Below, in pieces: positions 2,317-30,393 of a DNA stretch of 64,000 bases. Positions within the stretch are counted from its first letter, which is position 1; each line of letters begins with the position of its first letter. The notes under the pieces were generated by a model. That model did not search any database. It had not been told where the DNA came from and saw only the letters and a list, made by a program, of their open reading frames with translations. The stretch spans positions 79,300,001 through 79,364,000 of the forward strand of contig OZ076409.1 of NCBI GenBank assembly GCA_964187785.1, given 5' to 3'. This DNA is from Amphiscolops sp. MND2022. Its lineage: Eukaryota. Position numbers and translations under genes: made by a program.

Positions 2317-5300
2317 CTAGGCGTGAGTTTGACGTAGTTCTTCCGTCGTAGCTGAGTCTAGCATTCTGAAGTCAGGATCCACGTTAGGTTTCGGATTAGG
2401 TCTCAGATTGTATCGACCTACTTTCCTAGGGTTATATCCAACGACTATAGGCGGTAGTTCAGGCGTTTTGGGAGGGCTTTCTAGAGGCGGTGGTGTTAGT
2501 ATATAGGGATTGTCACTGACGTCCAGATTAAATGACGTTACGTTGTCGGGGGGTGTTTTGTCTCCTTCGGCTGTTTCATTTGTGGCTGTTTGAGCCACGT
2601 CATTTTCCGTTGTAATCTCGCTTGTGGTTGTTTGAACCACGTCATTTTGCGTTGTAGGTTCGTCATTTTCGATTGTATCTGTGATCTCTGTGATTGTAGT
2701 TTCTTCTTTGGCGTTTTCCGTTGTGTCTCCGAACAGAACTTCTCCGAATTCGGTTTCCCAAGCTTGCGCGTACCAATCATTGTGGGTTGTTTTAACCTCT
2801 GGATCTGGAAGGTAATCTTCCCTTCTGACTGTTACGTCAGGTACTCGCTGATTGGGCGCATATAGCCTTAGGCGAATTCTATGGAGGGTTTGCGTGTAGC
2901 GGGTTCCCGTGCGGCGTACGACGTAGTTGTTGTTAGACAGTACTTTGACGACTATGTACGGACCAGTCCAGATGCAATCTTTGAAAGCGAATTTCATTGA
3001 TTGGTTGTCAGCTTTCGGATTCAAGACGTAGCAGTGGTCATTCACTTTGAGTGGCGTTGCAGTCGCTTTCTTGTCGTAGTATTGTTTGTACTTGAGATAT
3101 GACTGCATGAGATTGTCTTTAGCTGCTTGTTGTATCTCAGCTATCTGCTTCTGTAGTTGATCCGTTAGTTCGTCGTTGTTGTCTTTTTTCCATTCCGGCT
3201 TTAGTCCCAGTTTGATGTCTAGGATGTTATACGGGATGCGTCTGTGGAACACTGTTGTAGGTTCGCAGCCTACACTTTCATGGTAGCTTGTATTGTAATT
3301 CATGACTGCTATTTGGACATATTTGTGCCACATGGATCGTCGTTCTCCCGTCGATATCTTTAGGGAGGTTTTTAAAGAGGCATGAGTCCTTTCTAGGATG
3401 CCAATGGTTTGAGCGTGTTTCGTCGTTGCGTGGCTTATTCGTATATCGAGTGTTCGTGCTATTTGGTCGACTACTTCTGACCTGAATTGTGATCCTTTAT
3501 CTGTTAGTATAACGGTCGGTAGGTAGCAGTGTCGTGTCATGACGTCTATTATGCATCGTGCGACTGTTTTTGCTGTCATGTCCTGTGTCGGGTATGCGAA
3601 AAGATAACGAGAGAAGACGTCCATCATCGTGACGATGTGCTGATATCCATTGGAGGATGGTAGATTTGGTAGTATATCTACTTCTAGGCAATCTTCTGGT
3701 CCCAATGTGAATTCAGTGTTGCTCAGCATTTTGGGACGTATCTGTCGCGTGTCGATTCTTTTGTTGGCGATGCAGTCTGGGCAACTGGTAACCCAGGCGC
3801 GGATTTTTCGTGCTAGTCCCGGGAAATAGTATTTGGCTCGGCATTCTTGTATCATCTTTGCTATTCCTGCATGTTTATTTGTCTTGCCATGTAGTGTTGA
3901 TAGGAGTTCTGGTACAAGGTGTTTAGGAATGATGACTTGATTGTGCGTGACTGATCCGTCCTCACCGTAGTATTTGCGCATTAGTACCCCATCTTTCATG
4001 ATGATTCTTTCTTCGTGGCGTAGTAGGTGGCGTCCTCGTGGTTCAGTCTTTAGTAGGTGTTTGTCGTATTCTTCGTGCGACACCCGTTGTTTTAACGCTT
4101 TCAGTAGGGGGTCCGCATCTTGTTCGTTTCTGATTCGTGCGTTTTCTTTGATCGCTCCGAATGCATATACTGCGGAGTTGAGGGGTATTTTGATGACTTC
4201 GGTGACTTTGGTAGAAAGGTCTTTTTCATGTTCGTCGTTGGCACGTTGTTTGCTGAGGGCTTTCCTAGCGAAGATTTCTTGTTCTGATTCTTCCTCTTCA
4301 TCTGGGAGGAAGAAAAGTTGTTCTTCGTCCGCTACATCCGATGACTGTAGGTTTACTTCTATCGGTGCCGTAAGTATGTCGTACCGTAATTTCAGTTGTA
4401 CTTTCTCTTTAGGTGTGAGTTCAAGTCTTGAGAGGAAATCTGCTGCCGTATTTTGTGACCCTGCTACGTGCATGATGCGGAAATTAAATTGGAGTACATG
4501 GTCGCAGGCATTCCAAAGTGCAGGTGGTGTAGTTTTCGTTTGGAAAATCGTGTGACCGAACGGTTGTCGGTTAAAACTAGCGTCGGTATTGTCGCTTCTC
4601 ATAATATATGGCTGTATTCAAGGAAGGCGTGATATATGGCTAGAAATTCTTTGCAATAGATTGACATTTTCAGTTGTGCTGGTGAAAAAAACACGGGATC
4701 CAAACGCGACAGGTGCGAAGGTTTTCTTTTTGGATAGTATTTTCTTTTCATCGTTTTCTTCTATCATGAGGGCATAGCCGGATGCGCGAAAACTTGCGTC
4801 TGTCATGAGAACGTATTGCTTTCCTGCTAAGGGCTGTCGGAGCGCGAGGCCACATGCTTCTGCTAGGCTGTCATTGATTTCTTTGAAGTTGTCGACGAGT
4901 TCTTCGGATATTTTGATCTTGGCGTCGGCCTTTAGGAGTTCGTACATGCCTATGAGTTTTTCGGACAGGCGGGGTATGTAATTGCGATAATAATTGACGA
5001 ATCCGATGTATTTTTGAACCTGTTTTTTGGACTTGGGGAATCGGACTTTAGAAAGGAAGTTTTTGACTTTCTGGTCTTGCGGTGCTATTCCGTCTGGGGT
5101 GATGGTTCTGCCGAGGAATTCAACTTGTGTAACTCCGAAATGACATTTTTCGATTGTCAATTTCAGGCCTGCTTGTCTGATGCATTTGAAAACTGCTCTA
5201 ATGTTCTTGATGAGTTGTTCCGTCGTATTTGCGGCAATACCAATGTCATCTACATACTGTGCACACTGATCTGCTTTGATGACTGCGTCGAGGTACTCTC

Positions 5301-7563
5301 GCATGAAGCTTGAGAAGGCTGAGAGGGCTCTACTTAGTCCTTGGGCTAGGCGCCGGTAGGCGAACGTTCTACTAGCAAAGTTGAAAGCAAGTAATTCTAC
5401 TGACCTTTGATCTGCCATTTGAAGGCAGGGGTACGCTTGGGAGCAGTCGAGTTTGCAGAAAAGTTTTTTCCCAGCTAGGTGTTGTGCCGCATCTGAGAGG
5501 GTGCTGACGGGGTGGTTGTTGTTGATGTAGTCATCTGCTATGAGTGCGTTGATTTTGCGCAGATCCACCAGTAGTCTCAGTTTGCCGTTGGGTTTCCGTT
5601 GTGCAAATATAGGACTGGCGTACTTGGAGAAGGGGAGTGTCGTGATGATGCCGTATTTGTGCATGAGGGCCAGCTCTACTGTCAGGTCTTCTTTGAGATT
5701 GATTGGGACTGGTAGACTCTGGGTGTATACTGGTTTATCATCTCTTGGTGTGAGGCTGACTTTGAATTGCGTGTTCATTCCGATGTCGAGACGGTGGCGG
5801 GCAAATATGTCGTTAAATTCGACTAGTGTGGTTTCAAGGTTTTCACGGTCTTTGCCCGTAATTAGTGAGTCAGTCTATTTGAATAACGAAAGGAATTTGT
5901 GTCGAGATTCAGCGTTTTCAGTTGGATCTAGTTTTTCTAGTTCGGCAAGTTCTCGTAGTTCTTTCAAAATTCGTTTTTGTATGGTGGTGTGTTCTTGTTC
6001 ATTGCCAGGGTTGTCTGGGGTTGGGAACCAGAATTTTTCTTCAATATCTTCGGGTTTGTCGACTTGCATAAGTGCGTTGATGTATGTGACTACATCGTCG
6101 TGCTCTGTTAGAAGGTTGAGTGCGGCGATGTCTACAGGCCGTATCAGTTTCGTTTCTTCTGGTTTGAGGATTTGTAGTTCCGCGATCTTGGTGTCTGGAG
6201 CTATCGTGTAGGGGAAGTCTGTTGTGTTGGCGACCTTGATTGCTACTTTCTTGCTTCTGGCTGTTGTGATTGCTGGGGCTACTATTAGTTTTGAGTTTTC
6301 GTCGAATTGTGGTAGGGGCTGGATTGTCCCTGTGATGGTGTGTTCTGTTGTCACGGGTATCACTGCGTATATTATTCGCGTTGCTTGTGCTGGTATAGTA
6401 TGTTTCGCTTCCGTTCTAATGGTGATAGGTTTCAGATTGCATTTTTGCATTTCGTCTGTGAGTGCCATCGTAATTTGAATCTTCGGGAAGTCAATTGTTC
6501 CCTGGGCAGTGTCGAGAATTGCGGCATGTTTCCGTAGGAATGCTAGTCCGATGATGGGGAAGGACATCTGGTTCATGACAATGAACGTTTCCTCAAAGGT
6601 ATAGTTGCCAATTTTGAAACGTAATGTATACGTTGCCAGAGGTTGCTCGAGTTCAGCATTAGCATATTGTACCTTGAAAGGGGGTGGGGGTGCTTTGTGT
6701 ATGATGCATTGGTTTGCATCTTGTCGGAGTTTTTCGGCGTCTCTTTCACTAATGGCGTTGATGTATGCACCTGAGTCGACGAGGGCGTCTATTTTGACGG
6801 AATTGAAGTCTACTGGTAAGAAAAGCATTCGTTTTTTCTTTTTCAGTGTAATTGCTGACATTAGCGGAATGTAGTCGTCATCTTTGTCATGTTGTATGAA
6901 TTCCTTGATGACGTCTAGGTCGTCGGGTAGTGATGTTGGGTATTCTATTTCTGCATCGTTGCTTCTCGTTATCTCTGTGGCTGGTGCTGTCTGTGTGGGC
7001 GGTGGAGATGATGAATCAATGGTTGGGTCTTCAGGCTTCTGTTGCCACAACGTTTTATCTTCGATGCAAATGATGTCCTCTGCGTTTATGGGCGTGGACG
7101 TGACGGTGACGGGCACTGTTGGGGAAGGTCCTGGGTTCTTCAATATCGGGGAGGGCGGTGGTGGAAAATGATGTGTTTCTCTGAGCTGGGGCTGTGGGTT
7201 TGGTATCTGGATTTTGAAAGCAAGTTTGTTGTGGTCGTATATGTGGGGGTTGTCCCAAGGATCACATCTGTAGTCCACGTCATATATGTATGTTCGTTCA
7301 GTTTTGGATTCTGGCAGAGGTCGTTTCAGTGTGGCATAATTGTCAGGCGACTCCGTTATCCATTGGGGTAGTGGTATTGGGTCTTCTGGGTGTCGTGCAT
7401 TGTGTCTAAGTATCATGCCTACGTTCCAACGACGTTGCCAGTCCTGTGTCGGTTCTTCGTTGCATTCTGTGAAAAAATCTTCCTCGTATCTGTTTGGGGG
7501 GTCTTCGATGGTGTACGCCCTCGCGTCTACTTTTTCCCCGAACCGTAGACGCGGCGATTTTAG
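2317..7563 (-). pseudogene. pol: E1 pol (protease, RT, RNase H, integrase), disrupted
   Basis: LVDSGA protease, AQYVDD RT, TDAS RNase H, HHCC and D..D..E integrase with WTGPY. In-frame stop at 5875-5877 and frameshifts or deletions around 4550-4690. Confidence 0.93.
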
Positions 7564-8969
7564 TTTTTTGTTTGGGTGTTGGCGGTGGGGACAGGGGCGT
7601 CACTGATTTTGTCCGTGGGGATGGTGAATTCCCTCTTCTTTCGTCTGGGGTCATTTGCCGCATTTGCTCCGTTCCAACAATTCTCGGTTTTGTGCATTTT
7701 TCCGCATGTATTGCACTTGGGTTTGGGGGCTTCGCTTTGGTTTAAGTCTTTGGTAGGAGGTTTGGCGTTGTTGTAGCGTTCTCTCTGGAGCCTGCGACAC
7801 TGTGCTTTATAGTGGCCGTATTTTCAGCAGTGGAAACAATGACCTCGTTGTTGTTGGTCTTTTTTATGGTCCGTCACTACAGCGTCCACTGTGTTGAGTG
7901 GGACTAGGATTGTTTCATCGGGCGCACCTAGTCCGTTTAATCTCATTTCCCTCTCAAGATGTAAAACTATGTCATTGTAGGGTTTATCTTCCAAATATGC
8001 TCTGTTGAGGATCTTTTTGACGTGATCCGGCATTTTGGCGTAGATTGCTTTATCAATGAATTTTTGTGCTTCTGAGCCGAATGCTTCTTTTGCAGTTTTT
8101 TGCAGGGTGTCAAGGAACTCATGGAGTTTCTGTTTAGTGGGGTCAAAATGCAGGGCGTCCCACTCACATCTCGCTTTAGCGGATGATTGGAAATCACCAA
8201 AGCGGCGTTTAAATGCCGTTATGACTTCTTCTAGGTTGTCTTTTTTGGTGTCATCTAGATTACAATACGCTTGTAGTGCGTTTCCTCGTAGGAGTGAATG
8301 GAAGTAGTTGATCTTTTGTATCTCGGTTAGGTGAGGATACATTTTGATATTGTTTCGGAATAGGTCCTCAAAAAGTTCAAAATTTTCGGACTTACCATCG
8401 AAAACTGGGAGCGAAGCAGTGAGTGCTTTCGGCATCGGAAGTAGATTGGTTGATGGGAATGTCTGTGGTTGTGGTGCGAACAGTATCTTTGACGTGGATG
8501 GTCGGTCTTTTGGTTGTTCGCTGAGTATACGTTGTGCTTTTGGTCTTTTGGTGGGTTGGTTAGTGGAATCATTGAGGACTCCTGTCACCATGTTACGACT
8601 ATTGTTCGGTGTTGTTTTAGAACTAGTCGCAGTTTGTGTTTTGACTGGGGTGGACGTTCTTGCTACGGAGATGTTTTCTTGGTCAGAATCAGAATCTTGC
8701 AAGTTCGGATTAACTGAGCGTTTCTTGCTCGCAGGTGCTATTAATTTGAGCATTGCCTTTTGGTTTTCAGCTAATATTTTTGCTAGATCAGTCATTATCT
8801 CTTTTCTCAGACTTGTTTTCATTTCCTCCAGATTTTCAAGCTCAAGTCTAGGGTTTTTACTAGAGCTAGGTATCAGGTTCTCGGTGGAGTTATTTTCAGT
8901 TAGAGAAGCTTCAAAATCTCCCGACGCTAACTCGGCTATAGCTTTTCTCTTCTGGCTCCTTGTCGTCAT
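7560..8969 (-). pseudogene. gag: E1 gag (starts inside the LTR; premature stop in zinc knuckle)
   Basis: ATG at 8969 (MTTRSQKRK); FDGK..FELFEDLF capsid-like block; CFHC*KYGHYKAQC with TGA at 7824-7826; second knuckle CNTCGKMH; TAA at 7560-7562 after slippery AAAAAAC. Confidence 0.88.
8579..8590 (-). other. E1 primer-binding site TGGTGACAGGAG
   Basis: Directly follows the LTR end ...GTCGTAACA; the same 12-mer follows the LTR in E2, E4 and E5. Confidence 0.9.
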
Positions 8970-10932
8970 TTTCAAAGTTGAGATATCAGAGTCTTTGGCA
9001 AGAATTAAATTCTTCAAAGAAATTTTGAGTTTTCGTAATTTCAACGAGCAACAAAATTTTGAAACAAATCCAAGTTCAACTAAAAATACATGTCCTCTCT
9101 ACCTATTTATACCTTCTTAGCATCATTTGTTCCTCACCTAAAAATTCCTAGGAATCTTAAAAGTCGGGTTTGTTCAACAAGATTCGCCGATGATTCAAAT
9201 TATTTCAGTCTGGCGTCATAAATTCAGGTATCGAAGTTCCTAGTTGCGTCAACATTCCGTGAGACTTTGTTGAAATCATTTTTGTTCAGATAATCCATTT
9301 CCTGTTTGATCTTCAAAACCGCGGTAAAATAGAAGTCTAATTGACATTTTCATCGGCGTAAGCACGCCGGCGTGAACTATTAGTCAATATCCAACTCGAG
9401 GAGTTGGAATTTTGAGGAAAAAGATGATGTTCAAAAATGGTGACGGAAACGATACGTCGCTGAAAATTCGCCGTTGAGAATATTTGAAACGAGAAACAAA
9501 TGATGCTGATGGGCATTAAGGCAGACTGACTTCAACAAACATGAAATCCAACATAATAATTGACTTGGGTTACGGGAATACTCCGTATAATGTCCCAAAT
9601 ACTAACTAGCTGCAACAGCACAAGAATAAAAATAAAACAATGTAACAAAGGCATTTCAAAACTGGTACAAATCCGAAATTGCTTTCGGGATCATTCATTC
9701 ATCATCATATTTAGAGTTAGGTTATAAAATTAGCATCAAACAGACATCAGTATAATTTACGTATACACTTCGTGACTTGGAATTAGGTCCTGAGTAATAC
9801 AGCTTTTATCATACAGAAAACATGACGTAAGTTTACGAGGACTAGTGCAAAATTCATCACCATCAATTGATCATAAACTGCAAAGAAAGCATTGGTATGA
9901 ATTACGGGTACACTCCGTAATATAGTATTTAGGAAGTATAGCAATGGCATAATAAATTAGTATAGAATTCAGGACATTACAACTTTGTTCTTCTCATAAT
10001 CCTTCCTTACAGAGCAGCTGTTTTCCTCTAAAACCTAATCAAGAAATTCCTTAGCTAATAATGAACCAGGAAAAATTCTCTTAAACTTTCATTCGTTCCA
10101 TTTTTTCCTAACTATATGTTCTCAGAACACTCCGTAAATGCTTCGCATGTATTAAGATTGCTTATAGTAGAGAGGTGGACTACAATTTTACAATTCGCCA
10201 CGTAACTGCTACGTACGTATAAAGATTGCTTATAGCTAGAGGTCAGAGTGGACAGAAAGCGAGCGGAACGCGTAGGCGAATTCATTCTTTCTCTCTTATT
10301 CTGATTGGCGTTGCTAGGGGCAACCGAATTCAATACCGCTCGCGCTAGCTAAGAATAATCCTGCCGAGGAGGTGACGTTATTAGTCCGCGAAAGTAGAAT
10401 ATCTAATTTTAGCTCAGTAGAGTGACGCCGTCATTACGTTGTAAATCCTCTCTTAAGTCACTTGATTGCGCCTTAAGTGGGTATTGACAACTACTTTATC
10501 ACAGAAAACACCAAAACAACTCTGTCTTTTATGTATTTTTCCTTTTAGATCGTATGGATTCCGTTGGGATTGCGGGATTTTAAATGTGTTTTATTTTAGT
10601 GTGGAACTGAAGAAAAATCCCTGTTGTTAAATGTCTATTTTGGTATTTAGATCAGTATGGCGAACTTCAGAAGATTAAACCGGATATGGAAAATCTATTG
10701 AGCGTGAAATCTTTTAACCGGAAGTTTTAGCTAAAATTCATTTCCCAAAATATTCCGTGACGCATACGTTAGATTCTTATTCTGAAAAATCTACGAAATA
10801 ATCTTAGCTGCACTGTAAGTAGAATTATATTAGTTTAGTTAGTATTTTAATGGTACTTGCAGTATCCTCTTCCTCTGCCTCTTCCTAGGGCGAAACACCA
10901 TTCACACCCACGACCGGGAGCGGGTCGTGACA
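8591..10932 (-). repeat. E1 5' LTR (~2.34 kb)
   Basis: Imperfect terminal inverted repeat TGTCACGAC...GTCGTAACA, followed by the PBS. The partner LTR is outside the window. Confidence 0.82.
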
Positions 10933-11911
10933 CAGTCATCAATACTAAATTCATTCATGTTATGGTGCATCGTTTAAAAGCTAAAACTGAAATATCCAGT
11001 TATTTCCATATTTACGACTGAAACAATCAGTCATCATCCACAGTGATAGTGCATCGTTTAACCATTCTTTATCCATTTTTTATATTACATGTAACGTACT
11101 ACCAGAACAATCAATCATTCATAGTCATAACAATCCATTCACTTAAAACACAACATTTCGTTCATTTATATCAGTAATTCGTGCAATATCCATTAGTAAA
11201 TTACTTCAACCGATAATTAGAGCAGTCACCACGATGATAAGAACACTCAGTAGTAAAGCCTCAATATGAGAGATAATTTGAAATAATTACGTGCTAAGAT
11301 GACTGGTGCTTGCGGTCATACTAGATCAAACATACGTAATTGAGCATCGATTATCACCTGCAACGACTGTGGCTACCAGTCGTCAAGTGCAATTAGCAGG
11401 TTGAACGCCATTGGCTAAGAGGAAAGGTGCTAACACACTTCCATAATTGTACTATCGGGTAAAACCGAACAACACACACGAATTGTAACTTTTGACGAGA
11501 TAAGTTGCTTACTACTGTATCTTCCTATCATCATTCCAATTCATACCATTATACCATTTCAAATTTAACTTAAAACCTTTTGGCTTTTCATGGTAACTAC
11601 CTGATCTCAAAGTAACCGTGACAAGCAAATAGAAACGCAAAATATGGATAGATCTAGTGACAGTGAAAGCGATGCTAGTTTCCCAGATGTGTTATCCAGA
11701 GACCAAATTGAGAATCTCGATTCCGAAGATGTATTAACCAGACATCATGGTAATCATAACAATAGTGTCGATCAACGTTTTAATGAGTTAAATAGACAAA
11801 TTGGAGACCTTACAAGTATAGTCCTTACCTTAACAAACCAGATTGCCTCCATTAACGGAGAAGGGAACAGACCGAACATAGCAACTACAAGTGCTAACAG
11901 TCGTTCCGACA
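10933..11911 (+). repeat. E2 5' LTR, missing its first 149 bp (displaced by E1)
   Basis: Matches 25124-26102 apart from about four substitutions seen by eye; ends CCGACA, followed by the PBS. Confidence 0.95.
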
Positions 11912-13128
11912 TGGTGACAGGAGTTACGAACCCACGACCATCAGGTTCCCGGACAACACCACCCAATGGGACACCACAAAGTAACTCCAGCATTCCGCAG
12001 ATAGCTGATATGATGACAGAAATCCACCATCTCCGCAGCACAATGGGAGAAACATTAACCCAACCCAAAATCCTGCAGACCCAAGTACCCCTATTCAAAG
12101 GAAATCGAGACAAGTACAACGAATTTGAGCATTTATTGCTCAACCACCTACGCCCTCACGCACACAAACTGACTGAGGAACAAAAACTCAATTACTTCCA
12201 GAGTCTGCTCAGAGATGATGCAATCGAGTTTTGGCAGACGCTACCAATAACAACAGAAACAACACTGAGGGACATACTAATGGCATTCAAGAAGGAATAT
12301 GCGAAGGAAGAACTCTCTGAAGTCTCAAAATTCAAATTCGATCAGGTCCGATACGACCCGACTACCGAGTCATTCAGTACCTTCCTTGCAAATTACAAGA
12401 AGATTGCCAAACAAGCATATGGAGACAAGGCACAGGAAATCGTTCAAACCTTCCTGTTCGCCAAACTACCAATTCAGCTTCAAAATGAATTGGCAATCGC
12501 TGGAAAACACAACGCCAGTATCGAGGACATTGAAACGTTCGTTCAGAGGAGATGCCAGTATGCACAGTTGTTACCAAATCAACAACTCCTCCAACCATTC
12601 AACCAAGCTATCCAGACGCAAGAAGTCCCGACCAAGCCAGTTGTCCAGAAACAAAACACAAACGAGCGACCACCTATCAAGAAGAAATTTGATGGCAATT
12701 GCAGATACTGTGCAATTTACGGGCACAAATGGGCCGAGTGCCGCAAACGATTACGAGACGAAGCAGCGGGCAACAACAACTCACAAGCGCAGAAAAAACC
12801 CGAACAACAAAACAACAACCACGCAGAGACACAAACAAAATACAACGCCAAACTGGTCTGCCAAATTTGCGGGTATACAGGCCACTCCGCAAAAGACTGC
12901 CGCTATAGAATCCCCCAAACTTCAGCGTATGGAAGTGTGCCCTACAATAGACAAACCACAACCGAGAATAGGGACTTCCGACGTGACTTCAGAAGAGCAC
13001 AAAACAGCCCCTACCCAACCAATGAAATGAATGAGTTCACACCAGGGGAACAACAACATCAAACCAACGATGACTACTACCCACAGGACTTCACAGAAGC
13101 ACCATCCAGCCAGCCAAAAAACTTCTAG
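11590..13128 (+). CDS. gag: E2 gag; original ATG 11590 in the LTR, nonsense change at 11602-11604; ORF 11644-13128 open
   Basis: The 3' LTR copy reads MVTTRSQ where this copy reads MVTT*. Two CCHC knuckles (CRYCAIYGHKWAEC, CQICGYTGHSAKDC); AAAAAAC at 13116-13122. Confidence 0.9.
11912..11923 (+). other. E2 primer-binding site TGGTGACAGGAG
   Basis: Immediately after the LTR-terminal CA; lies inside the gag ORF. Confidence 0.9.
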
Positions 13129-13320: not shown

Positions 13321-16300
13321 ACTTACAAACGACTGAAGACACAGCACTCAAACTCGACCAAGACAACTGACTGTACAAGGAAAACAACAAACCGAAAGAA
13401 GGACGTGGCGATCCAGGTGTTAACAGCAACACTTCAGTTAAACAAAAAGGACAAGATGTTATACGTCCCATTGCAATTCAGAGCATACGAGAACCATGGA
13501 CTCCTCGACACGGGAGCAATAAGAAGTGCCATGTCAGAAGACGAACTCAGACGAATCTTGTCAGCTCATCCAGCAGCACTTCTTGAAGAGTACCCAGCAC
13601 CGGACTTCAAAGTCCAAATTGCCAACGGGAGCATCGTCCCAGTCCGGAAACAGGTATTACTCCGCTTTTTCATCGGTGGTAAAGTATTCGAGGAAACCTT
13701 TATGATTCTACCAACCATGGGCAACATCTTGATCGGAATGTCCTTCTTCAAGAAATACTCAGTGACGCTTGACCTTGCCAATAACGTGGTCAAATTCCCA
13801 GACATTACCCTTCAACTTAAACCAGAAAGAGGCCGATACAAAGTTCAGATGCTCAAACTACGCACATCGCAGAAGATAGTGATACAACCGGATCACCAAA
13901 TCATGGTCCCCGTCATAGCAGAAAAGGACTTCGGGACAATCCAGGGCACTGTAGAAACCTTTCCAGCCTTTGAAAGGAAGACCCAACTACTAGTGTCCCC
14001 TGCTTTAACACAAATCACTGAGATGAAAAGCCATGTCCAGATCACCAACCTCACCAGTCACACAATCACCCTCAACCCGAACACGACAGTGGCCACATTC
14101 AGAATAATGACTCCCAACCAGGCAAAGAACCTACAACCGATGTCAAACGAACAATTGACACTGATCACCAAATACCCAGACGAAGCTGATAATGTATTGA
14201 ACCAGCTGTTCCAGGAGCCCGGCACCGAAACCAACCGCCGATGGTACCCAACACCGGAGACCTGTGATAACCCGTCCAAGTTGAACCGCATTGAAAGGCG
14301 GATATATGACGAAATCACTAAACTCCGTGAGGAAGAGAAACTGTATCCAACAGCAGACGACAAACAACGCAAGGAGTTCCTTGCCAACTTCAAATGGGAA
14401 AACTCAATCCCGAATGAGCACGAACGACAACAGATTGAGAACCTCCTTGTGAAGTATAACAATGTGTTCGCCAGACACCGCCTTGACATAGGCATCAATA
14501 CCGACTTCAAAATTAAACTCACCCCGAAGCACGATGAGCCAGTCTACGCGCAGAGTTTACCCACACCCACAAATCTCAAAGACGACCTACTCATCGAGCT
14601 AGCACTGATGCAAGAGTACGGAATCATCACGACGTTGCCATACAGCAAGTATTCCTCACCAATATTCGCTCAGCGCAAACCTAACGGGAAACTCCGCATA
14701 CTCGTGGACCTGCGCAGAATCAACCACCTCCTGAAAAATGATTACAACCAACATAATCATCCAGTAACCACCATCGCTGATGCCGCCCAGCACATGGCAG
14801 GAAAAAAGTATTTCTGCAAGCTGGACTGTTCGCAGGCGTACCACAGCCTGCAGATGGCGGACGAGCAATCCATACAACTTCTGGCATTTAACTTCGGCAG
14901 CCGCACATTCGCTTATTTACGACTGGCACAGGGACTCAACCGATCCTTGTCAGCATTCAACAGCACAGTACGAGAATACGTTGATGCACTCGTGAAAGCG
15001 GACAAATGCGCGCAATATGTCGATGACATTGGGATTGCTGCCCACACCGTTGATGAACTACTGTCCAACATTGAAGCTGTGTTCCAGCAAATCCAGAAAG
15101 CAGGATTGAAACTATCAATGTCAAAATGTGCGTTTGGCCACCCACAAATTGATTTCCTTGGGAGAAGCATCACATCAAAGGGTGTCGCCCCACTCGAAGA
15201 CAAAATTGATGACTTCCTCAAAAAGATCAAACTACCCACATCAGTCAAATCCCTCCAAAGGTACATCGGGTTTGTCCAATTCTACAGGCAGTACATACCA
15301 CGCCTGGCAGAAAAGCTCACCCCACTGTACAAACTGCTACAGAAAGATGTGAAATTCCAACTGAACCAACAACACAAGGACATCATTTTCGAGATTAACG
15401 AAAACCTTGCCAAAGCTGCGAAACTCTCACTACGCCTACCATTACCCGACAAACAACTTGTTATAATGTGTGACGCCAGTGAGCACGCGGCAGGATATGT
15501 CCTCCTGATAGAAGACTACACCGAAACTAACGACGGACCAATGAAGACGTACGCACCAGTATCATTTGGATCCCAACGATTCACGGAGGGCCAAATGTCA
15601 CTTACAATGTATGCGAAAGAATTCCTGGCGATGCATTTCGCATTCGACGAATTCGCACACATACTCTGGGGTGTCAAGAAACCAACAATTGTAATGACGG
15701 ACAATAAAGCACTGACCCGTTTCTTCCAGTCCAAACGAATTCCCCCGAAGCTATGGAATTACTGCGATCAGACGCTTCAATTCGAATTCGTACTTGCCCA
15801 TGTTCCTGGAACTGAGAATCCTGCTGCAGACTACCTGTCTCGTCTTGACATACGACCAGAGGAGAGAATCCACCTCAAACTCAACGACGAGATACCAGTC
15901 TTTCACGTCGAGATCGATCTGGCGTCACGAACACCGAAGCAGGACGAAGAAGAAGAAGAATACATACCTGATGACCAACAAACCACCACCACCAAACAAA
16001 ATGAAGCCATCAACGCCATACTGGACCAGGTCCCCATGTGCAGTGACGAATCGAGTGGACAGTTTCGTGAGAGGATAGAAACCATCCGTCATCAAATCAC
16101 ACCCATCATCACAGGGCAGCATGACGAGATGACGTTCACCCGATTCAGGCGAAAGCTTCATGACAACGTGGTAAACCAGGTATGCCCCAATGGGGAGTTT
16201 CAAATCATCCAGGATCAACTCGTAAACCTTGACATCCAACGCATGATTAGAAATTTGAATCAAAAGGAAACCCTTCCTAATCATGTGAACTTTGAAAGTC

Positions 16301-17946
16301 AGTTTTTCCAAAAACTAGTCAAAAACAAGAAAAGACTTGAAGTAGTGAACAACGTTTTGTACAGGAACTTTTTCGATGGTACAGGTAAAATTAAGTGTAA
16401 ACAAATTGTCACACCCACTGAAACTATCCAAAAAATCATCCAATCTTTGCACGATGACCCTCTGCAAGGTCACCCTGGTTGTAATAAAATGCTCCACGAG
16501 CTACGTAAAAGGTACTACTCCCCGAACCTCTCTGAACTGGTACTGCAATACGTCTCGAACTGTCAGGACTGCATCCGCTCAAAACCAATCCGAAAAGCTG
16601 CAATCACACCACCACTCCAACAAATATATGACCCTTGTAACGGACCAGAAGACATACTAGAAATTGATTTAGTCGGTGAACTCCCATCCTCCAACGGATT
16701 CACACACATACTCACTGCATGCGACTACTTTTCTAGGTACCTCTTCGCAATACCTATCCGTAAACAGGACACAAAGTCGGTCGTAGAAGCACTTATGCAA
16801 ATTTTTACACAACATTCCTACGTACCCAAGACAATCCTAACTGACAAAGGATCAACGTTCACAGCCCAACTGTTCAACTCCCTGATGGAGTCTGCCGGTA
16901 TAAAAATCGCACACGCATCTGTCAAACACCCGCAAACGGTCGGAATGGTTGAACGTTCTCACCAGAGACTAAAGCAAATCCTTAAAATTAACATCTCAGC
17001 TGATTCACCACAATGGCATAAATACGTCAACATGGCCGTAATGGCCCATAACACAACCTACCACCAGGCTATTCGATGTACACCCACTGAAATTTTCCAC
17101 GGACGTGTTCCATTCAATGCCCTTGACGTCAAATTCGGAAACCCACTAACTGAACAACGCAACACTACCGACGTCACTGGGATACTCGATAACATGAACA
17201 AAAAATTCCAACAAACACATGACAACATAATCGAAGCCTTCCACAAATACAAGAATTACTACGACCGAAAAGCGCAAGCTTCACCTCTGAAAGTAAATGA
17301 CTTCACCTTTCTGCTAAACAAAAGACTGTCTCAACAATCTGACAAAATTCCATTCAAGGAATTTAAGTGGGAAGGCCCATACAAAGTGGTCAAAGTCTTG
17401 TCCAATTCAAATTACATTATACGTAAGATTGGAACTCTTCGCACTCAATGCGTTCACAGAATGAGGCTCCGCCCATTTACACAAAACGCACCAATTGAAG
17501 ACATTCAAGACAATACATCACAATACTTTGAAGATCCCGACGCCCTCAACGAGCAGGAGTTGTTTGACAACCACCTACCCGATCACGTCCATGAACAACC
17601 ACAACAAGCAATACCTGAACAATCGGACTTCGAAGAACTACATGCTGACCATGGAATGATATACTACGAACGACAAAGCATAGAACCCGATCAAAACATT
17701 TCCATACCTGAAAGCCAAGCTGAAACACAAGTACCACAACCAGATACCGTTAGCACGAATAATTCTGAAACAAACAACAATGAATACCAAACAAATGACC
17801 ACCCTCCACCGACATCACGACTAACTATGTCTCCGTACGGACTCAGACACAACCCAAAACCTACCACGTACCCTGACTTCCTGATGCACGAACTACATGG
17901 AACGCCTTCGCTTCAACAGCTGCTTCTGAAAAACAGAAACCTATAA
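13321..17946 (+). CDS. pol: E2 pol: protease-RT-RNase H-integrase
   Basis: LLDTGA, AQYVDD, MCDAS, HHCC, D/TDKGS/ERSH and WEGPY in one open frame. One frame slip (~13321-13370) separates it from the -1 frame after gag. Confidence 0.95.
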   Translation, partial: TYKRLKTQHSNSTKTTDCTRKTTNRKKDVAIQVLTATLQLNKKDKMLYVPLQFRAYENHGLLDTGAIRSAMSEDELRRILSAHPAALLEEYPAPDFKVQIANGSIVPVRKQVLLRFFIGGKVFEETFMILPTMGNILIGMSFFKKYSVTLDLANNVVKFPDITLQLKPERGRYKVQMLKLRTSQKIVIQPDHQIMVPVIAEKDFGTIQGTVETFPAFERKTQLLVSPALTQITEMKSHVQITNLTSHTITLNPNTTVATFRIMTPNQAKNLQPMSNEQLTLITKYPDEADNVLNQLFQEPGTETNRRWYPTPETCDNPSKLNRIERRIYDEITKLREEEKLYPTADDKQRKEFLANFKWENSIPNEHERQQIENLLVKYNNVFARHRLDIGINTDFKIKLTPKHDEPVYAQSLPTPTNLKDDLLIELALMQEYGIITTLPYSKYSSPIFAQRKPNGKLRILVDLRRINHLLKNDYNQHNHPVTTIADAAQHMAGKKYFCKLDCSQAYHSLQMADEQSIQLLAFNFGSRTFAYLRLAQGLNRSLSAFNSTVREYVDALVKADKCAQYVDDIGIAAHTVDELLSNIEAVFQQIQKAGLKLSMSKCAFGHPQIDFLGRSITSKGVAPLEDKIDDFLKKIKLPTSVKSLQRYIGFVQFYRQYIPRLAEKLTPLYKLLQKDVKFQLNQQHKDIIFEINENLAKAAKLSLRLPLPDKQLVIMCDASEHAAGYVLLIEDYTETNDGPMKTYAPVSFGSQRFTEGQMSLTMYAKEFLAMHFAFDEFAHILWGVKKPTIVMTDNKALTRFFQSKRIPPKLWNYCDQTLQFEFVLAHVPGTENPAADYLSRLDIRPEERIHLKLNDEIPVFHVEIDLASRTPKQDEEEEEYIPDDQQTTTTKQNEAINAILDQVPMCSDESSGQFRERIETIRHQITPIITGQHDEMTFTRFRRKLHDNVVNQVCPNGEFQIIQDQLVNLDIQRMIRNLNQKETLPNHVNFESQFFQKLVKNKKRLEVVNNVLYRNFFDGTGKIKCKQIVTPTETIQKIIQSLHDDPLQGHPGCNKMLHELRKRYYSPNLSELVLQYVSNCQDCIRSKPIRKAAITPPLQQIYDPCNGPEDILEIDLVGELPSSNGFTHILTACDYFSRYLFAIPIRKQDTKSVVEALMQIFTQHSYVPKTILTDKGSTFTAQLFNSLMESAGIKIAHASVKHPQTVGMVERSHQRLKQILKINISADSPQWHKYVNMAVMAHNTTYHQAIRCTPTEIFHGRVPFNALDVKFGNPLTEQRNTTDVTGILDNMNKKFQQTHDNIIEAFHKYKNYYDRKAQASPLKVNDFTFLLNKRLSQQSDKIPFKEFKWEGPYKVVKVLSNSNYIIRKIGTLRTQCVHRMRLRPFTQNAPIEDIQDNTSQYFEDPDALNEQELFDNHLPDHVHEQPQQAIPEQSDFEELHADHGMIYYERQSIEPDQNISIPESQAETQVPQPDTVSTNNSETNNNEYQTNDHPPPTSRLTMSPYGLRHNPKPTTYPDFLMHELHGTPSLQQLLLKNRNL

Positions 17947-19847: not shown

Positions 19848-22800
19848 TCAGTTTGAAAGGTTTCGACTAATACTCTTTTGAGTATGAGGAGCCACCCTCG
19901 TTACTGTCTTCCTCGATTGTAAAGGACCGCCTACCAGTTTCAACTGTCTCGTCACTGAAACTCGCCAAAGTTGCTCTGCCTCTCTTATCGGGACGACCAC
20001 CGGTTCTCTGCCCCGATTCCCTCCTCGTCCTGACGCCCGAACGCTGACGGTTTTCCGCTTCGAGCCAGATGTACTCGGTGTTAACATCGATAAAACAACT
20101 TCAGTTTGTAATCGGGGCACCTGTGTTGCGGAAGACTTCCCTTTAGCCGGACTGCGACGACTGACTACAGGACTAGACTCCATGGAACGCAACTGGTCGC
20201 AAACAGTTGACCGATAATCATCAACGGCAGGCCGCGACGGAAGACCTCCAGTGGATTCGAGGACACCAACACACCGTTCAAAAAGTTCATCCACTCCTCG
20301 TTTCACAAGCTGATCCCACGGGATACCACGAACAGCATCATCTAGACGGGACGACTGCATATCGGTATTGCTGCAATGACGGACAAATCCTATCATCGAA
20401 AGACGAGAATGCCCGCTGAACCCTGTCGCCATCCAACTTCTCACCAAATGTAAACTGGACAACATGATGCCCTTCTCTAACACAGTATTTCCGACATCAT
20501 GGAAATCAACCCGATACACATCATGCAGCATTCCAACGACAAGAACTTCGATAACGTCTCGCAACTCCTTGCACCGGTCCCATGAGGGGTATGACAGCCA
20601 TAGGGACACAGCATCTTCAATAACCGGCGCAGTTGCAACACTTGACTCCCATCGTCGCTTGAAATATCTTGCCACTTCTCGATATTGTTGTACGATCACA
20701 GCCCCATCCTCCTCACTACACAGGTCCCCGAAACTAAGGACAGACAAAGTTCCAACTAGGACGTCAGTTAGACGATCCATGGAGCACGACTGGATGGCAC
20801 ACGGATCCAAAGGCAACAAACTCAGATGTCTCAGCCATCCCTGGTCAAAATCGGCTATGCAAGCTTCACATACAGTGCGAAGGAACTTCTGGACCTCCTT
20901 GTAAAAAAATGGCTTCTGGCGACTGACATCGAAACGAAAGTATTGCCCAAACAAAGCTTGGTAACGATCTTGATCCACAGGAATACTCTCACCAATCCTC
21001 AACTTCAACACTGAGAGCACTTCGAATCCAGGAGGAATTGTCTCTGGGCTGACGACCATCGATAACAAGACACGCAAGAAGGCTGCCAGCTCCCTCTCGA
21101 AACAAAGATTCCGGTCCCTACCAGCGCTACGCAGACGAGGACACTCAGCAACAACTGAAACACAAGAACGGCAATCAGCAAACACGCAAACCAATACCAC
21201 ACAACTACCTAGTACACAAGACGTCAACACCGACTCAATCACAAACTCAACCTAATACATCCTAGCCACAACCAAACAGGGAAATCAAATAAACGACTAA
21301 AACCAACCAGTCTCAGCAAGGAATTCAGGACTGCAAAGCGGGGTCGTGACATGCCATCGTTAAACACCTGAGTCTCCATACTCACGATGTTTGATGTCTC
21401 AGCGGCCGTGTTTGCTCGATGGACTCCGAAGTAAGCCCCCAGATCGTCCCAGCGCTCTACTAGTTCGGTGACCAGTGCGGACAACTCTCGAAATCGGCTG
21501 GCCCCTCCACGCACAAACTAAAACAGAATCACCAGAAAAGTTCAGCGGATGATCAGCACAACGGCAGTCTCTACACTCCTCATTACTCAAGTCATCAAAT
21601 AGCAAAGCAGACGAACACATGCGATCACAACAACCCCCCCCCCACAACAAAAAGAAAGGAAAAGGGCAAAACAACAAAAGCAGAATAAACAAACCTCACG
21701 CAAACAAGGCATGTTGTTAAAAGCTGAGTCCTCAATTACTGCAGACAACCGGAAGCGGAAGTACTCCAGGATGCTGAACGGTTCAAGCCCACTCGACTCC
21801 TCGATGAATTTGCGACGAAACAGATCTATCAACCACTCGCTGTCAAAAGGACGGGTCACAAGTGGCATCGAAGGATGCACCACACTAGCCAGAGCACGCC
21901 CCAAACGCAAGTTGTCGCCCACACTCACTGCGGATAGTCCACGATATGATTCCATGCAGGACAGCAGGGACAACACAACTTTGAGGAGAGAACGCTCCCA
22001 ATCACTGCCGCCAGGAATAACGGCCAACACAACGACTTTGACAGCCAGGCCATCGAAGATGTGGCAGTCCACCCTCCGCATAGCCCCGTCCACACGAACA
22101 TGAAGACCAAAGCGCACTCCTGAGGACAGAAGGTCACCCAGCTTCTCAACGACGAAGGGATACAATCCGTATAGGACGAGACTCTGAAAACAACAAACAA
22201 CGCACGATACGCATTAGCAGTCACGAAACCTCTCAACACACACACAACCAGAAACCATGACATAGACTCAAGCTCTTAATAAAACACACGACACTTATAA
22301 AAAAGTAAACAAAAACAAATGTTACCTGACATTTCGAATAGGACAATGCCCGTTCTGCAAAGACGACCTCGCCACGCATACTGCTCGACCACGACTCCAC
22401 AAAGCGGGTCACACTAGCGAAGTCACGAAGTTCGACGAAGCCGTTGATGAAGCAACATAACCAGAGGTATGCAGCACTTGTTTCAGACAATTGCGGTTTC
22501 GCGCCAGCGGCCTCCTCCTCAATCTCTATGGCGATGCGCTCTTCTACTGTCAGCTTGAATTCCGACTCTAGAACGACGGGAGGCTCCGACATTCTTTCAG
22601 CACGAATTCGCCTGTCCTCTTCTAACGACACTGGCCTGCAGGACTTGTCTAGCAAAGGCCGATTTGACATAATTCGGAAACGCTGTTCGAGGCGAGTGTG
22701 TTCTCTCCCCTTCCAGTGGTCCCACAAATTGTGGAGGCCTCGCCCAGCAATGCTCAGGTCCACGCGACATAGGCGACATCTGGCATAGCCGTCTATGACC

Positions 22801-24156
22801 CGCTTGTTCCTCGGGAAACCAACAAAGGTCCCCACAACGCCTGACACGAAGAATGACGGCTTTAAAGTTTTGATCGCACGTTTCCGTCCTGTAAACACAA
22901 CCACAACCAGCTGAACAAACTGATTTAGAAACCTTAAAACCTTCAAAAAAACACAAAAAACAAAAACCTGTGTTTGTCCTTAACACCCTAGTAGCATATG
23001 TTATTCAATAATTTAACAATTACCACTAAAACCCCCCCACATGATCTTATGAGATTCATTACCAGGTTTTGACGTCGTCGCAACGCCAGAAGCAGAAGAG
23101 GATGGAGCACCCGACGGAACTATCACACTGCGTTCCCCGAATTCCGCGGGCGGCACATCTGAACACACACCAGTCCGGAAGCCCTCCACTCCAGCTATAC
23201 TGCCAGCTACGGATGGTGGACGCGGCAGAACATCATTGACCGGAGGAATGACTGGCGGATGACACAGTTCCTGGATCGCAGCTTTCAATTTGTCAAGGAA
23301 TTCCTCGACGGCGAGGGCACCCACCGTCCCCAACTTGCCGAGACTCGATTCCACAGCTGCCTTCACCCACTGTTGTATGTCATGCTCAACCCGAGTGAAC
23401 AATTCTGTAAACTGACCTGACACAACGTCAGCTCGCACAACAGCATCTGTAAATATAACATACCCGAATAGCTGTGACTACTTAGGATACAACTGACCAC
23501 CGGCGCTCACCGCTTCTGAACACCTGAACTCTGACGGCACCCCACCCCCCTGACAGTGCAATGGTATGGAAACACAATAAGCAATACCCCCTACACAACT
23601 CAGTAGACGAAACAACTTAGAAAACACAGCAGTGAGTACACCTACCGAGATGCGACGACAAGAAGGCATCCAATCGCCGCAGTATTGGAGTCGACTCTAA
23701 ACTCCCTGAGGATCCAGTTGCCACAGACGATCGGAAGTGGCGTAGGTATGCAATCAACTCAGACATGTCGACGTCGACTATAAACAAAAATGAACCAAAT
23801 GGCACAAGAACGTCACAAACCTCCAGATGTGACGGGTTTAGCCCTCATAGATGGCGACCCCACGATGAGACACTTTGGACCTCCCACTTATGAAAAGAAA
23901 AGCTCTGAGATCAAAACTTACCAAATTCCTGGGAAAGCACGACATCCAGCAGGTCACTCAGACCAACAATATTCGCGGACGAAACCCGCGAAGTGAATTG
24001 ACAGCAGTGACTAGTAGCCATCAAGATTTCTGGCAAATCCAGACCACCTCCACTCCCATCTAAAGGAGGATTCGAAGACGCCATTTGCTGCTCCACGACG
24101 GCAACTAGCTCAGACAGGCCAGGTCCAAAAGAAAGCTCTCCCTCATCTTCCGACAT
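19848..24156 (-). CDS. E2 antisense accessory gene, ~1120 aa, 8 predicted exons; BED-like zinc finger plus degenerate hAT transposase body
   Basis: Predicted exons 24156-23922, 23777-23646, 23549-23511, 23446-23063, 22888-22326, 22183-21695, 21517-21304, 21154-19848 (3363 nt, divisible by 3). All introns are GT-AG with matching phases; the donor at 21303 is the weakest. Motifs CRLC..LSIAGRG..LWDHWKGREH, SKCQ|SLVLYGLYP, LVERWDDLGAYF. Confidence 0.78.
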
Positions 24157-24958: not shown

Positions 24959-24974
24959 AAAAAGGGGGGGGGAA
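24959..24974 (+). other. E2 polypurine tract
   Basis: AAAAAGGGGGGGGGAA immediately before the TGT start of the 3' LTR. Confidence 0.9.
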
Positions 24975-26102
24975 TGTCATGCCCGCCAAGCATGAAGAAA
25001 TGAAATAAACTCTAAAACATTAATCCTTACACCAAACTCCCTAAAATACAGATCATCATGTAAATACATTGCAGTAATTTATTAGCTAAACATTACAGTT
25101 GGCTATATGACAACTGAAACTAGCAGTCATCAATACTAAATTCATTCATGTTATGGTGCATCGTTTAAAAGCTAAAACTGAAATATCCAGTTATTTCCAT
25201 ATTTACGACTGAAACAATCAGTCATCATCCACAGTGATAGTGCATCGTTTAACCATTCTTTATCCATTTTTTATATTACATGTAACGTACTACCAGAACA
25301 ATCAATCATTCATAGTCATAACAATCCATTCACTTAAAACACAACATTTCGTTCATTTATATCAGTAATTCGTGCAATATCCATTAGTAAATTACTTCAA
25401 ACGATAATTAGAGCAGTCACCACGATGATAAGAACACTCAGTAGTAAAGCCTCAATATGAGAGATAATTTGAAATAATTACGTGCTAAGATGACTGGTGC
25501 TTGCGGTCATACTAGATCAAACATACGTAATTGAGCATCGATTATCACCTGCAACGACTGTGGCTACCAGTCGTCAAGTGCAATTAGCAGGTTGAACGCC
25601 ATTGGCTAAGAGGAAAGGTGCTAACACACTTCCATAATTGTACTATCGGGTAAAACCGAACAACACACACGAATTGTAACTTTTGACGAGATAAGTTGCT
25701 TACTACTGTATCTTCCTATCATCATTCCAATTCATACCATTATACCATTTCAAATTTAACTTAAAACCTTTTGGCTTTTCATGGTAACTACCAGATCTCA
25801 AAGTAATCGTGACAAGCAAATAGAAACGCAAAATATGGATAGATCTAGTGACAGTGAAAGCGATGCTAGTTTCCCAGATGTGTTATCCAGAGACCAAATT
25901 GAGAATCTCGATTCCGAAGACGTATTAACCAGACATCATGGTAATCATAACAATAGTGTCGATCAACGTTTTAATGAGTTAAATAGACAAATTGGAGACC
26001 TTACAAGTATAGTCCTTACCTTAACAAACCAGATTGCCTCCATTAACGGAGAAGGGAACAGACCGAACATAGCAACTACAAGTGCTAACAGTCGTTCCGA
26101 CA
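24975..26102 (+). repeat. E2 3' LTR (1128 bp), containing the gag N-terminal ORF from ATG 25781
   Basis: TGTCA...CCGACA; direct repeat of 10933-11911. Confidence 0.96.
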
Positions 26103-28685: not shown

Positions 28686-28869
28686 TTGCTAATTTATTCC
28701 TTAATGACTTTTAGTAAAATTCAGTTTCATCCACGTTGATTTTTGAAGAATGACCCCTGAAAAATATCAGCTTTTCATGAAAAGCTGATATTTTTTGGGG
28801 GTCATTCTTCAAAAATCAACGTGGATGAAACTGAAAGTTACTAAAAGTCATTAAAGAATAAATTAGCAA
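28686..28869. repeat. 184-bp near-perfect spacerless palindrome (foldback/MITE-like)
   Basis: Arms are reverse complements around TTTTCA|TGAAAA at 28777/28778 with few mismatches. Confidence 0.9.
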
Positions 28870-30143: not shown

Positions 30144-30357
30144 TGTTATATTCGGTTCATACCGGCATGACCTCTACCGTAAATTCGGATACCAGCAGTC
30201 TAGAAGCTAGGAGTTGTTTACAAACAAACTCTAAATAGACTCTCATACCATACATACATTTATACTTTTGTTTTGGTTACAATACAGTGATACAAACATA
30301 GATCTACCTCTTTTAACGATCTCGTTTTCTCTTAACCTATATCCTTAGAATAGAACA
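30144..30357 (+). repeat. E3 5' LTR (214 bp)
   Basis: Direct repeat of 35823-36034; TG...CA ends. Confidence 0.95.
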
Positions 30358-30393
30358 TTTTTAAACTGTGTAAACCCTTCATAACGGAAAACA

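Follow-up and report, generated by a model that had tools for sequence, protein, structure and literature searches.

A many-intron accessory gene, lying antisense between pol and the 3′ LTR, is a fixed and selected part of one clade of gypsy-type retrotransposons in the genome of Amphiscolops sp. MND2022, and its protein is probably of hAT transposase origin. The gene was analyzed in elements E1, E2 and E5 of a 64,000-nucleotide stretch of contig OZ076409.1 (positions 79,300,001 to 79,364,000; the window), where it occupies in 3/3 elements the slot usually held by env, on the strand opposite gag-pol, as the initial annotation had claimed. The hAT ancestry rests on converging sub-threshold evidence and is likely, though unproven.

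E1, E2 and E5 are gypsy-type LTR elements of 15-16 kb each (Table 1); they are large, though short of record size, and the description "giant" given to them earlier is not maintained. In all three the pol domains follow the Ty3/gypsy order PR-RT-RH-INT (Pfam). E2 possesses two LTRs with TG...CA ends, a PBS-like stretch, a polypurine tract and an intact integrase (Pfam and sequence). Its 5′ LTR is split by E1 at 10932/10933, the TG start of the E1 LTR being placed at 10932 on the minus strand. The RT of E1 and E5 are 72% identical and that of E2 is 60-61% identical to those two, and the accessory genes group likewise; a distant gypsy element, E3 (RT 24%), has no accessory gene. The LTRs had been considered dissimilar, which is so for E2, with no match to those of E1 and E5, but the latter two share a 134-bp patch (69%).

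Table 1. Features of E1, E2 and E5, in positions of the window.
Feature	Position	Strand	Remark
E1 accessory middle exon	8..628	+	gene begins left of window
E1 accessory small exon	717..798	+	splice sites retained in 4/4 aligned copies
E1 accessory last exon	943..2168	+	945-1934 = folded model
E1 gag-pol	2317..9098	-	stops present in this copy
E2 5′ LTR, right-hand part	10933..11911	+	contains gag start; 99.6% identity to 25124-26102
E2 gag ORF	11605..13128	+	zinc knuckle, DUF1759-like
E2 PBS-like stretch (TGG...)	11912..11929	+	within gag reading frame; sequence; putative PBS
E2 pol ORF	13321..17946	+	PR-RT-RH-INT, gypsy type; Pfam
E2 accessory exon 7	19848..21154	-	conserved all-helical domain, ~326 aa, plus Ser/basic tail
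E2 accessory exon 6	21308..21517	-	helix with invariant Trp; frame break near end in this copy
E2 accessory exon 5 (middle exon)	21695..22183	-	presumed RNase-H-like strands, by eye only
E2 accessory exon 4	22326..22888	-	C-x2-C-x16-H-x5-H zinc finger and helices after it
E2 accessory exon 3	23063..23446	-	helical, then low-complexity; 74% aa identity to L030
E2 accessory exon 2	23646..23777	-	80% aa identity to L030; splice sites retained
E2 accessory exon 1 (ATG)	23922..24156	-	63% aa identity to L030; ATG and donor retained there
E2 polypurine tract	24959..24974	+	sequence
E2 3′ LTR, 1128 bp	24975..26102	+	TG...CA ends; sequence
E5 accessory gene	46592..51119	+	frame-broken copy
E5 finger	~48300-48890	+	
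E5 middle part	~48950-49435	+	
E5 short exons	~49680-49975	+	
E5 last exon	~50040-51119	+	
E5 gag-pol	51300..58225	-	fragmented

The E2 gene comprises seven exons separated by six GT-AG introns, with a predicted product of about 1100 amino acids; the accessory protein has a zinc finger and a large helical domain, together with a tail rich in Ser, Lys and Arg. The multi-intron organization proposed in the initial annotation is supported by the relatives: GT and AG are retained at introns 4-6 in 5/5 E2-type copies, in 4/4 E1-type copies and, for the 5′ exons of the E2-type gene, in the one pair compared, E2 and its relative L030 (1/1), the splice sites staying conserved while intron sequence diverged. 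The peptides that had been quoted are present, the E2 finger in the ORF at 22233-22979 and the E2 middle block in that at 21587-22213, as are the E1 and E5 blocks. Compared with four relatives, the E2 copy is frame-broken in exon 6, close to its end; a second break lies in the last-exon tail, where relatives match residues 1-416 of 467. An initial model of E2 with seven exons (1107 aa) was dropped as the product of this copy because it used a donor that is unused by relatives. The E5 copy is frameshifted, and its finger is devoid of the first Cys, which its relatives possess. Identity with an env-like ORF3, for which sense orientation, homology to fusion proteins and a transmembrane anchor would be expected, was also rejected: the gene is antisense, Pfam and BFVD gave no match, and the best 19-residue hydropathy (0.8-2.1) does not form a peak common to all clades.

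Genome-wide, E2-type matches lay at most 10 kb from an integrase match in 81/91 cases, and in 81/81 of these the gene was antisense and downstream (chance 0.19). For the E5-type, 54 of the 75 matches entered (from 150) were antisense and downstream of integrase, that is, 54/54 of those linked (chance 0.21), and E1-type loci adjoined the pol end at constant spacing in 30/30. Values of dN/dS were 0.027-0.136 (0.03-0.14 rounded) in 11/42 pairs; in the remaining 31 pairs synonymous sites were saturated. In the one element examined, E2, the two flanks of the gene share no inverted repeat of at least 12 bp, and the gene is fixed in position against pol, so that the terminal repeats and 8-bp duplications of an autonomous transposon, raised in the initial annotation together with linkage and selection, are not apparent. 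Low dN/dS, linkage to pol and conserved splice sites hence identify the accessory gene as a selected part of the element and not as a nested DNA transposon. Overlapping first-look searches of the genome gave 8141, 6564 and 1013 candidates, and in the protein library the family forms 1001 clusters at 50% identity; the 20 clusters looked up had no informative names.

The accessory proteins of the three clades are less than 25% identical (about 20% or less). Their homology along the length, as originally claimed, is clear between E1 and E5 but weak for E2: last-exon HMMs of single clades (Z=1000) gave E 2e-10 to 3e-23 for E1-type versus E5-type and only 1e-4 to 39 for E2-type versus the other two. 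By tblastn, E2 matched E1 with E 1e-5 and 3e-5 at ~19% identity, and E5 not at all. Longer or full-length homologues sought with the E1 last exon and alignment A3 were not found, which is weak evidence. Pairs with integrases 98-99% identical have accessory exons of 76-77%, and pairs at 94-95% have accessory exons of 86%; these sequence comparisons fit a gene that would diverge faster than pol and be exchanged between pol lineages.

Regarding its origin, the finger C-x2-C-x16-H-x5-H gave zf-BED at E 0.068 (13.6 bits versus a cut-off of 20.6), and the finger exon aligned to the N-terminus of natural hAT-type proteins with P 5e-4 (local) and 1e-3 (global). Two of these proteins, P0208 and P0212, likewise carry a finger of the H-x5-H kind. 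The Cys pair of the E1-type finger is located outside the DNA examined; E5-type fingers matched ZN292-like and KIN17-type C2H2 models weakly (E 6e-4 to 2.8, below the cut-off). Finger, exon 6 and last exon map to natural hAT-type proteins in hAT order and with similar spacing. In Pfam, neither the accessory exons nor 139 family members had a significant match, and PF05699, the hAT C-terminal dimerisation region, was found in 0/139 members at E 0.1. Searches of PDB sequences with the accessory protein gave nothing significant. Profile-profile comparison with hAT yielded E 0.036 for the middle exon, off register, as was its best score in sliding-window hhalign controls, and E 0.67 for the last exon, neither being significant. 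Accessory HMMs did not match seven long hAT ORFs and one fragment of this genome, nor did they give a significant match to one chance locus, L081, or to five hAT-type proteins from metagenomes. Four long hAT-like frames of the genome (C7:5662968, C10:34864407, C3:16853740 and C8:22613028) gave weak matches and are first candidates for the donor. A genome motif scan for the hAT subtype concerned gave 10 matches versus 196 for the control pattern, DUF4371 had no match anywhere searched, and viral contigs held no relatives of the hAT-type alignment. Of the C-terminal ERxFS block that the initial annotation gave as a hAT feature, nothing similar is present in the accessory proteins.

In the fold comparisons, for which Z 8 was taken as the trust level, Hermes occupied ranks 1-3 of 818 for the last exon (Z 4.6-4.8, rmsd 3.3-3.6, 80-84 aligned), and rank 9 of 48,161 in a broader comparison. 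Residues 1-252 of the pLDDT-91 last-exon model aligned on Hermes 365-609 (Z 4.9, rmsd 6.3, 181 aligned), the longest alignment among the matches listed and the Hermes segment expected for this exon. All Hermes scores are below 8 and level with those of unrelated helical bundles. A wide fold search with the deep last-exon model (pLDDT 90.9) returned no chain at Z of at least 8, with Hermes outside the top 50 and the list dominated by one long helix, and Foldseek against PDB and BFVD gave 0 matches at E 0.001 or better. In the ESM Atlas the middle exon reached DDE_3 at 0.80, a score attained by shuffled proteins one third of the time, and the last exon no more than clusters that were unnamed or unrelated and overlapped little in their features. 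Prediction of a complex of middle and last exons, made without alignments and with the partner fold uncertain, scored 0.00 and does not count as evidence.

Active hAT transposases depend on a D, D, E and R-W set of residues, in Hermes (8edg/6dwz/8sjd) D180, D248, R318, W319 and E572 (available part of PMC6027215). The accessory protein does not present this set, with the second Asp, the Arg-Trp pair and the Glu unseen in a register set partly by eye, for the middle exon, and partly by an offset of 8 residues from the final Hermes residue in the alignment. The second-Asp column holds G/A in 10/10 rows; the Glu column holds E in 1/130, and any one of columns 212-231 in at most 33/113. Because these two positions are not acidic, the protein is likely unable to cut DNA, provided that the hAT register is right. 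The earlier proposal of a catalytically dead enzyme thus agrees with both positions, but not with the first-Asp region, where column 32 of the middle exon is D/E in 9/10 rows.

That column, together with conserved acidic residues of the last exon (E159 in 100/131, D183 in 101/134), could belong to a rearranged acidic triad of a still-active nuclease or recombinase aiding integration or excision. This is very improbable given the composition of the second-Asp and Glu columns, and the element has TG...CA ends and already possesses an integrase of its own, which is intact. Improbable in the extreme is the chance insertion of independent hAT DNA transposons into the retrotransposons. Ordinary hAT elements are abundant in this genome (2215 candidates; 150/150 scored matches above the PF05699 cut-off), but chance insertion does not account for the same slot and strand in three so divergent clades, nor for strong purifying selection on the gene within the element.

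It is rather unlikely that the gene, though real and selected, does not derive from hAT and codes for a lineage-specific zinc-finger and helical protein, captured from the host or otherwise acquired. Every database test was sub-threshold, the confident deep model found no chain at the trust level, and the likeness of the finger could be a generic one; on the other side, Hermes, which had been named beforehand, appeared at or near the top of four structure lists, once on the expected segment, and three exons map in order onto natural hAT-type proteins. The resemblance to Hermes is read by this alternative as a common helical arrangement. Unlikely as well is a hAT-derived, non-catalytic protein that, instead of affecting transcription, binds genomic or double-stranded RNA through its finger, or tethers the integration complex to chromatin; export, packaging and shielding from small-RNA silencing are the roles proposed for RNA binding. 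The H-x5-H spacing resembles matrin/U1-type fingers, and the weak C2H2 matches of the E5-type finger point the same way, but this spacing also occurs in P0208 and P0212, and the fingers of hAT transposases are DNA-binding. Transcription converging from both strands would moreover yield double-stranded RNA, in line with what the available part of PMC7264820 offers for plant elements.

With moderate confidence we favour a captured, non-catalytic, hAT-derived nucleic-acid-binding factor acting in trans on its own element family. An ancestral gypsy-type element would have gained a hAT transposase gene, antisense, between pol and the 3′ LTR, and the gene would have been inherited since, its parts keeping the hAT order of finger, catalytic-domain strands, helical insertion and C-terminal part. 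Because the gene is antisense, its introns would not be spliced from the sense genomic RNA and would survive reverse transcription, and for the same reason a promoter of its own would be needed at the 3′ end of the element. The protein would be nuclear and most probably would bind element DNA and keep it transcribable, by anti-silencing or transactivation, a role consistent with a gene that diverges faster than pol and is exchanged among pol lineages. Of the class II capture put forward in the initial annotation, the integral, selected antisense gene stands, and hAT ancestry has sub-threshold evidence. A more tentative extension, less likely than not, is that a class I element domesticated a class II transposase, spliced, antisense and catalytically dead, as a sequence-specific anti-silencing or transactivating factor that is swapped between pol lineages as a module and helped the clade, with its thousands of candidate copies and hundreds of divergent lineages, to overrun the genome.

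Transposase domestication is well known in hosts; in this case the domesticator seems to be another selfish element. If true, the hAT reading would make it possible to trace where an antisense accessory gene of an LTR element came from, and placement on the opposite strand would be a simple means for a retroelement to retain a many-intron gene. Since the family is large, it offers a natural series for asking whether the success of retrotransposons is driven by accessory genes, and whether such genes evolve together with host silencing.

Titles and abstract beginnings from literature other than subscription journals and Repbase reports revealed no LTR element with a hAT-derived gene. Other invertebrate gypsy elements, planarian Burro and the bdelloid ORF3 types, have non-env extra coding capacity, as a polyprotein extension or an ORF3 (env-like, GDSL, DEDDy); the available text of PMC5408684 contains neither "transposase" nor "intron", and that of PMC6431247 does not contain "antisense". 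Burro is also longer than 30 kb, against 15-16 kb for E1, E2 and E5. Closer in layout are the plant Tat/Retand elements (maize Grande gene23, rice RIRE2, Silene Retand; TRP28/PF04195), which likewise carry an antisense gene between pol and the 3′ LTR in most copies; the accessory gene shares this aORF-3R arrangement, and TRP28, the mark of Retand/Tat, is absent from its exons and the 139 family members (Pfam). According to the available parts of PMC7264820 and PMC11963269, the plant ORFs are proposed nuclear DNA-binding regulators, gene23 with its own promoter, of unknown origin and without similarity to other transposable elements. The accessory gene differs in its sub-threshold similarity to hAT transposase and in its six introns and ~1100 aa, "intron" having 0 occurrences in the available text of PMC11963269.

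With hAT transposases, whose domain order is given in PMC6027215 (available part), the accessory protein appears to share the succession of finger, middle block, helix with Trp and helical domain, and its last exon superposes weakly on Hermes 365-609. It differs from them in the catalytic residues, in having no PF05699 match and no terminal inverted repeats (E2 gene), and in possessing a long extra N-terminus and a basic tail. VANC of the Mutator-like VANDAL elements is an element-encoded anti-silencing protein acting on non-coding DNA of its own family (PMC10398659, PMC5735166; available parts). It may be a functional analogue of the accessory protein, although it sits in a class II element. 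The plant mobile domain occurs in gypsy elements and MULEs as well as in host genes; an anti-silencing use has been suggested for it, and its capture from host genes into MULEs inferred (PMC5418596, available part). That domain is not a transposase core, whereas the cargo of the elements described here appears to be the transposase itself, carried by a retrotransposon.

The window, on contig C1 of a eukaryotic assembly of 1.07 Gb, is made up of LTR elements nested in one another. The gag frame of three of them, the gypsy-type elements E1, E2 and E5, begins within the LTR, as it does in Ty1. A weak dUTPase-like stretch behind the protease of E1 and E5 has no match in E2 pol. The reverse transcriptases (RT) of E1 and E5 are 72% identical and that of E2 is 60-61% identical to both, a grouping that is the same as that obtained with the HMMs of the accessory gene described here. 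E2 (about 15 kb) and E5 (about 16 kb) had been called giant, a term that we drop since they fall below the 20-kb internal length used as criterion in the accessible text of PMC6431247.

Features of the window (coordinates from its start)
Feature	Position	Remarks
E2 5' LTR remnant	10933-11911	99.6% identical to 3' LTR; cut by E1 insertion
E1 insertion point in E2 5' LTR	10932/10933	remaining LTR part past left window edge
E2 gag	11605-13128
E2 gag frame across LTR end and PBS-like site	11644-11930
E2 pol	13321-17946	order PR-RT-RH-INT
E2 3' LTR	24975-26102	TG...CA ends, directly after polypurine tract
E1 LTR with gag start	about 8270-10932
E5 LTRs with gag start	57110-59156 / 42803-44849
dUTPase-like stretch, E1 pol	5875-7599	E 0.03, below cut-off
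dUTPase-like stretch, E5 pol	54739-56430	E 0.011, below cut-off
E3, smaller distant gypsy element	30144-36034	214-bp LTRs; about 24% RT identity with E1, E2 and E5
E3 unannotated frame	33069-34106	345 aa; RNase H on one side, integrase on the other
1186-bp direct repeat pair	38701-39885 / 41294-42478	short non-coding interior; possibly a non-autonomous LTR element
184-bp palindrome	28686-28869
189-bp direct repeat pair	60983-61171 / 63812-64000

Between pol and the 3' LTR of E2, on the strand opposite to gag-pol, lie seven coding blocks with GT-AG introns, and homologous blocks occupy the same slot in E1 and E5, which bears out the antisense multi-intron gene of the initial annotation. E3 (RT 24% identical), a fourth gypsy element, lacks the gene. 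Clade-only HMMs of the last exon (Z=1000) connect the E1-type and E5-type genes firmly (E 2e-10 to 3e-23) and the E2-type to both weakly (best E 1e-4, worst 39). In the window itself, the E2 copy has one break close to where exon 6 ends and another in its tail, and the E5 copy has several.

The accessory gene is an integral part of the element, in a fixed antisense position. A first look at the genome gave 1013, 8141 and 6564 candidates for the three last exons (overlapping sets), and the searches listed 92, 101 and 150 matches. Of 91 E2-type last exons among the matches listed, counted without the second piece of one split match, 81 have at least one of 112 integrase matches within 10 kb, and of the best 75 of 150 E5-type ones, 54 have a partner among 150 pol matches; unpaired matches may still be linked to pol. 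All linked matches, 81/81 and 54/54, are antisense and downstream (chance expectation 0.19 and 0.21), and all 30 E1-type loci examined adjoin the pol end at constant spacing. Nested DNA transposons with their own terminal repeats are disfavoured by this fixed position relative to pol and by the lack of any inverted repeat of at least 12 bp between the E2 gene flanks. At E 0.001 or better, a profile of the last exon matched 1001 protein clusters (formed at 50% identity); nearly all of the 20 inspected were ENA records with no name. In two genomic copies (L030 and L002) internal deletions take out the middle exons and both gene ends are kept.

Substitution patterns indicate that the gene is selected. 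Of 42 exon pairs compared across subfamilies, 11 allow dS to be estimated and give a dN/dS of 0.027-0.136, not near 1; the remaining 31 are saturated at synonymous sites and have a dN of 0.035-0.39. An open frame runs through the conserved stretch of the last exon in 25/30 and 30/30 copies, top-scoring ones and therefore biased toward good copies. The gene is probably spliced, judging from the conservation of its signals: donor GT and acceptor AG of E2-type introns 4-6 are kept in 5/5 copies, with interiors diverged and lengths changed, those of two E1-type introns in 4/4, and the ATG and five splice sites of the 5' part in the single pair comparable. The intron preceding the last exon has phase and aligned position common to E1 and E2 types.

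The gene gave no significant match in Pfam, PDB sequences or Foldseek, nor did hAT transposases from this genome match the gene significantly. Models of the E1 last exon had pLDDT 62.7 (14 sequences) and 90.9 (139 sequences). The first placed Hermes, a hAT transposase of known structure, at rank 17 in Foldseek (E 2.4), at rank 9 of 48,161 in a wide comparison of structures (Z 4.6, rmsd 3.6, 84 aligned) and at ranks 1-3 of 818 in a second look (Z 4.6-4.8), and the better model placed it third of 234 (Z 4.9, rmsd 6.3, 181 aligned), all scores being below the trust level of the tool and level with unrelated helical bundles. They carry weight because Hermes had been named beforehand and the expected segment was matched: residues 1-252 of the better model align to Hermes 365-609, the longest alignment among the matches listed. 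In the wide comparison with that model Hermes was not among the best 50, a list taken up by one long helix.

Through a motif that we take to be hAT-type, five natural hAT-type proteins were picked, with intact acidic motifs and PF05699 over cut-off in one and weak in three more. Compared with their shallow profile, the finger exon (E2 exon 4) falls on the N-terminal finger (P 5e-4 local, 1e-3 global), exon 6 on the Trp helix (P 0.009, a value not independent of the way the proteins were picked) and the last exon on residues 556-649 (E 0.67). These three are placed in hAT order; the middle exon (E2 exon 5) gave no in-register alignment. Despite the absence of a significant database match, a hAT derivation, as initially proposed, is likely. 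Four long open frames of this genome, C7:5662968, C10:34864407, C3:16853740 and C8:22613028 (912, 633, 588 and 588 aa), resemble weakly the hAT subtype nearest the gene.

Active hAT enzymes require D180, D248, R318, W319 and E572 in Hermes numbering (PMC6027215, accessible text). With model residue 210 set to Hermes 564, E572 corresponds to column 218, where Glu occurs in 1/130 rows; in columns 212-231 no column has it in more than 33/113. The presumed second-Asp column, read by eye, is Gly/Ala in 10/10 rows, and no Arg-Trp pair was seen in the alignments. If the hAT register is right, these positions agree with the suggested loss of catalysis. Near the first Asp, D/E is kept in 9/10 rows, so that one acidic residue may survive.

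The protein carries a zinc finger, a folded helical domain and a Ser/basic tail, whose 77 residues in E1 include 21 Ser and 15 Lys/Arg. Antisense orientation would let the introns pass through reverse transcription, and the gene would have a dedicated promoter close to the 3' LTR. Its product would be nuclear and bind nucleic acids without cutting. We favour an action on the DNA or chromatin of the element itself, leading to anti-silencing or transactivation; possibly, instead of acting on element transcription, it binds RNA or tethers integration. Between subfamilies, integrases 98-99% identical accompany last exons 76-77% identical, and integrases 94-95% identical accompany last exons 86% identical, a discordance that suggests recombination swapping the 3' module. 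The gene diverges much faster than integrase and has reassorted against it, which fits a specificity module.

The gene itself is real and well supported, and its class II origin is probable. Searches of the literature outside most subscription journals and Repbase brought up no LTR element described as carrying a gene derived from hAT. The cargo of invertebrate gypsy elements in the accessible parts of PMC5408684 and PMC6431247 is of other kinds. VANC and PMD (PMC5418596), as far as the text available describes them, are functional analogies and no relatives. According to the accessible parts of PMC7264820 and PMC11963269, plant Retand/Tat elements and one fungal element share with those described here an antisense ORF in the same slot, of unknown origin and function.
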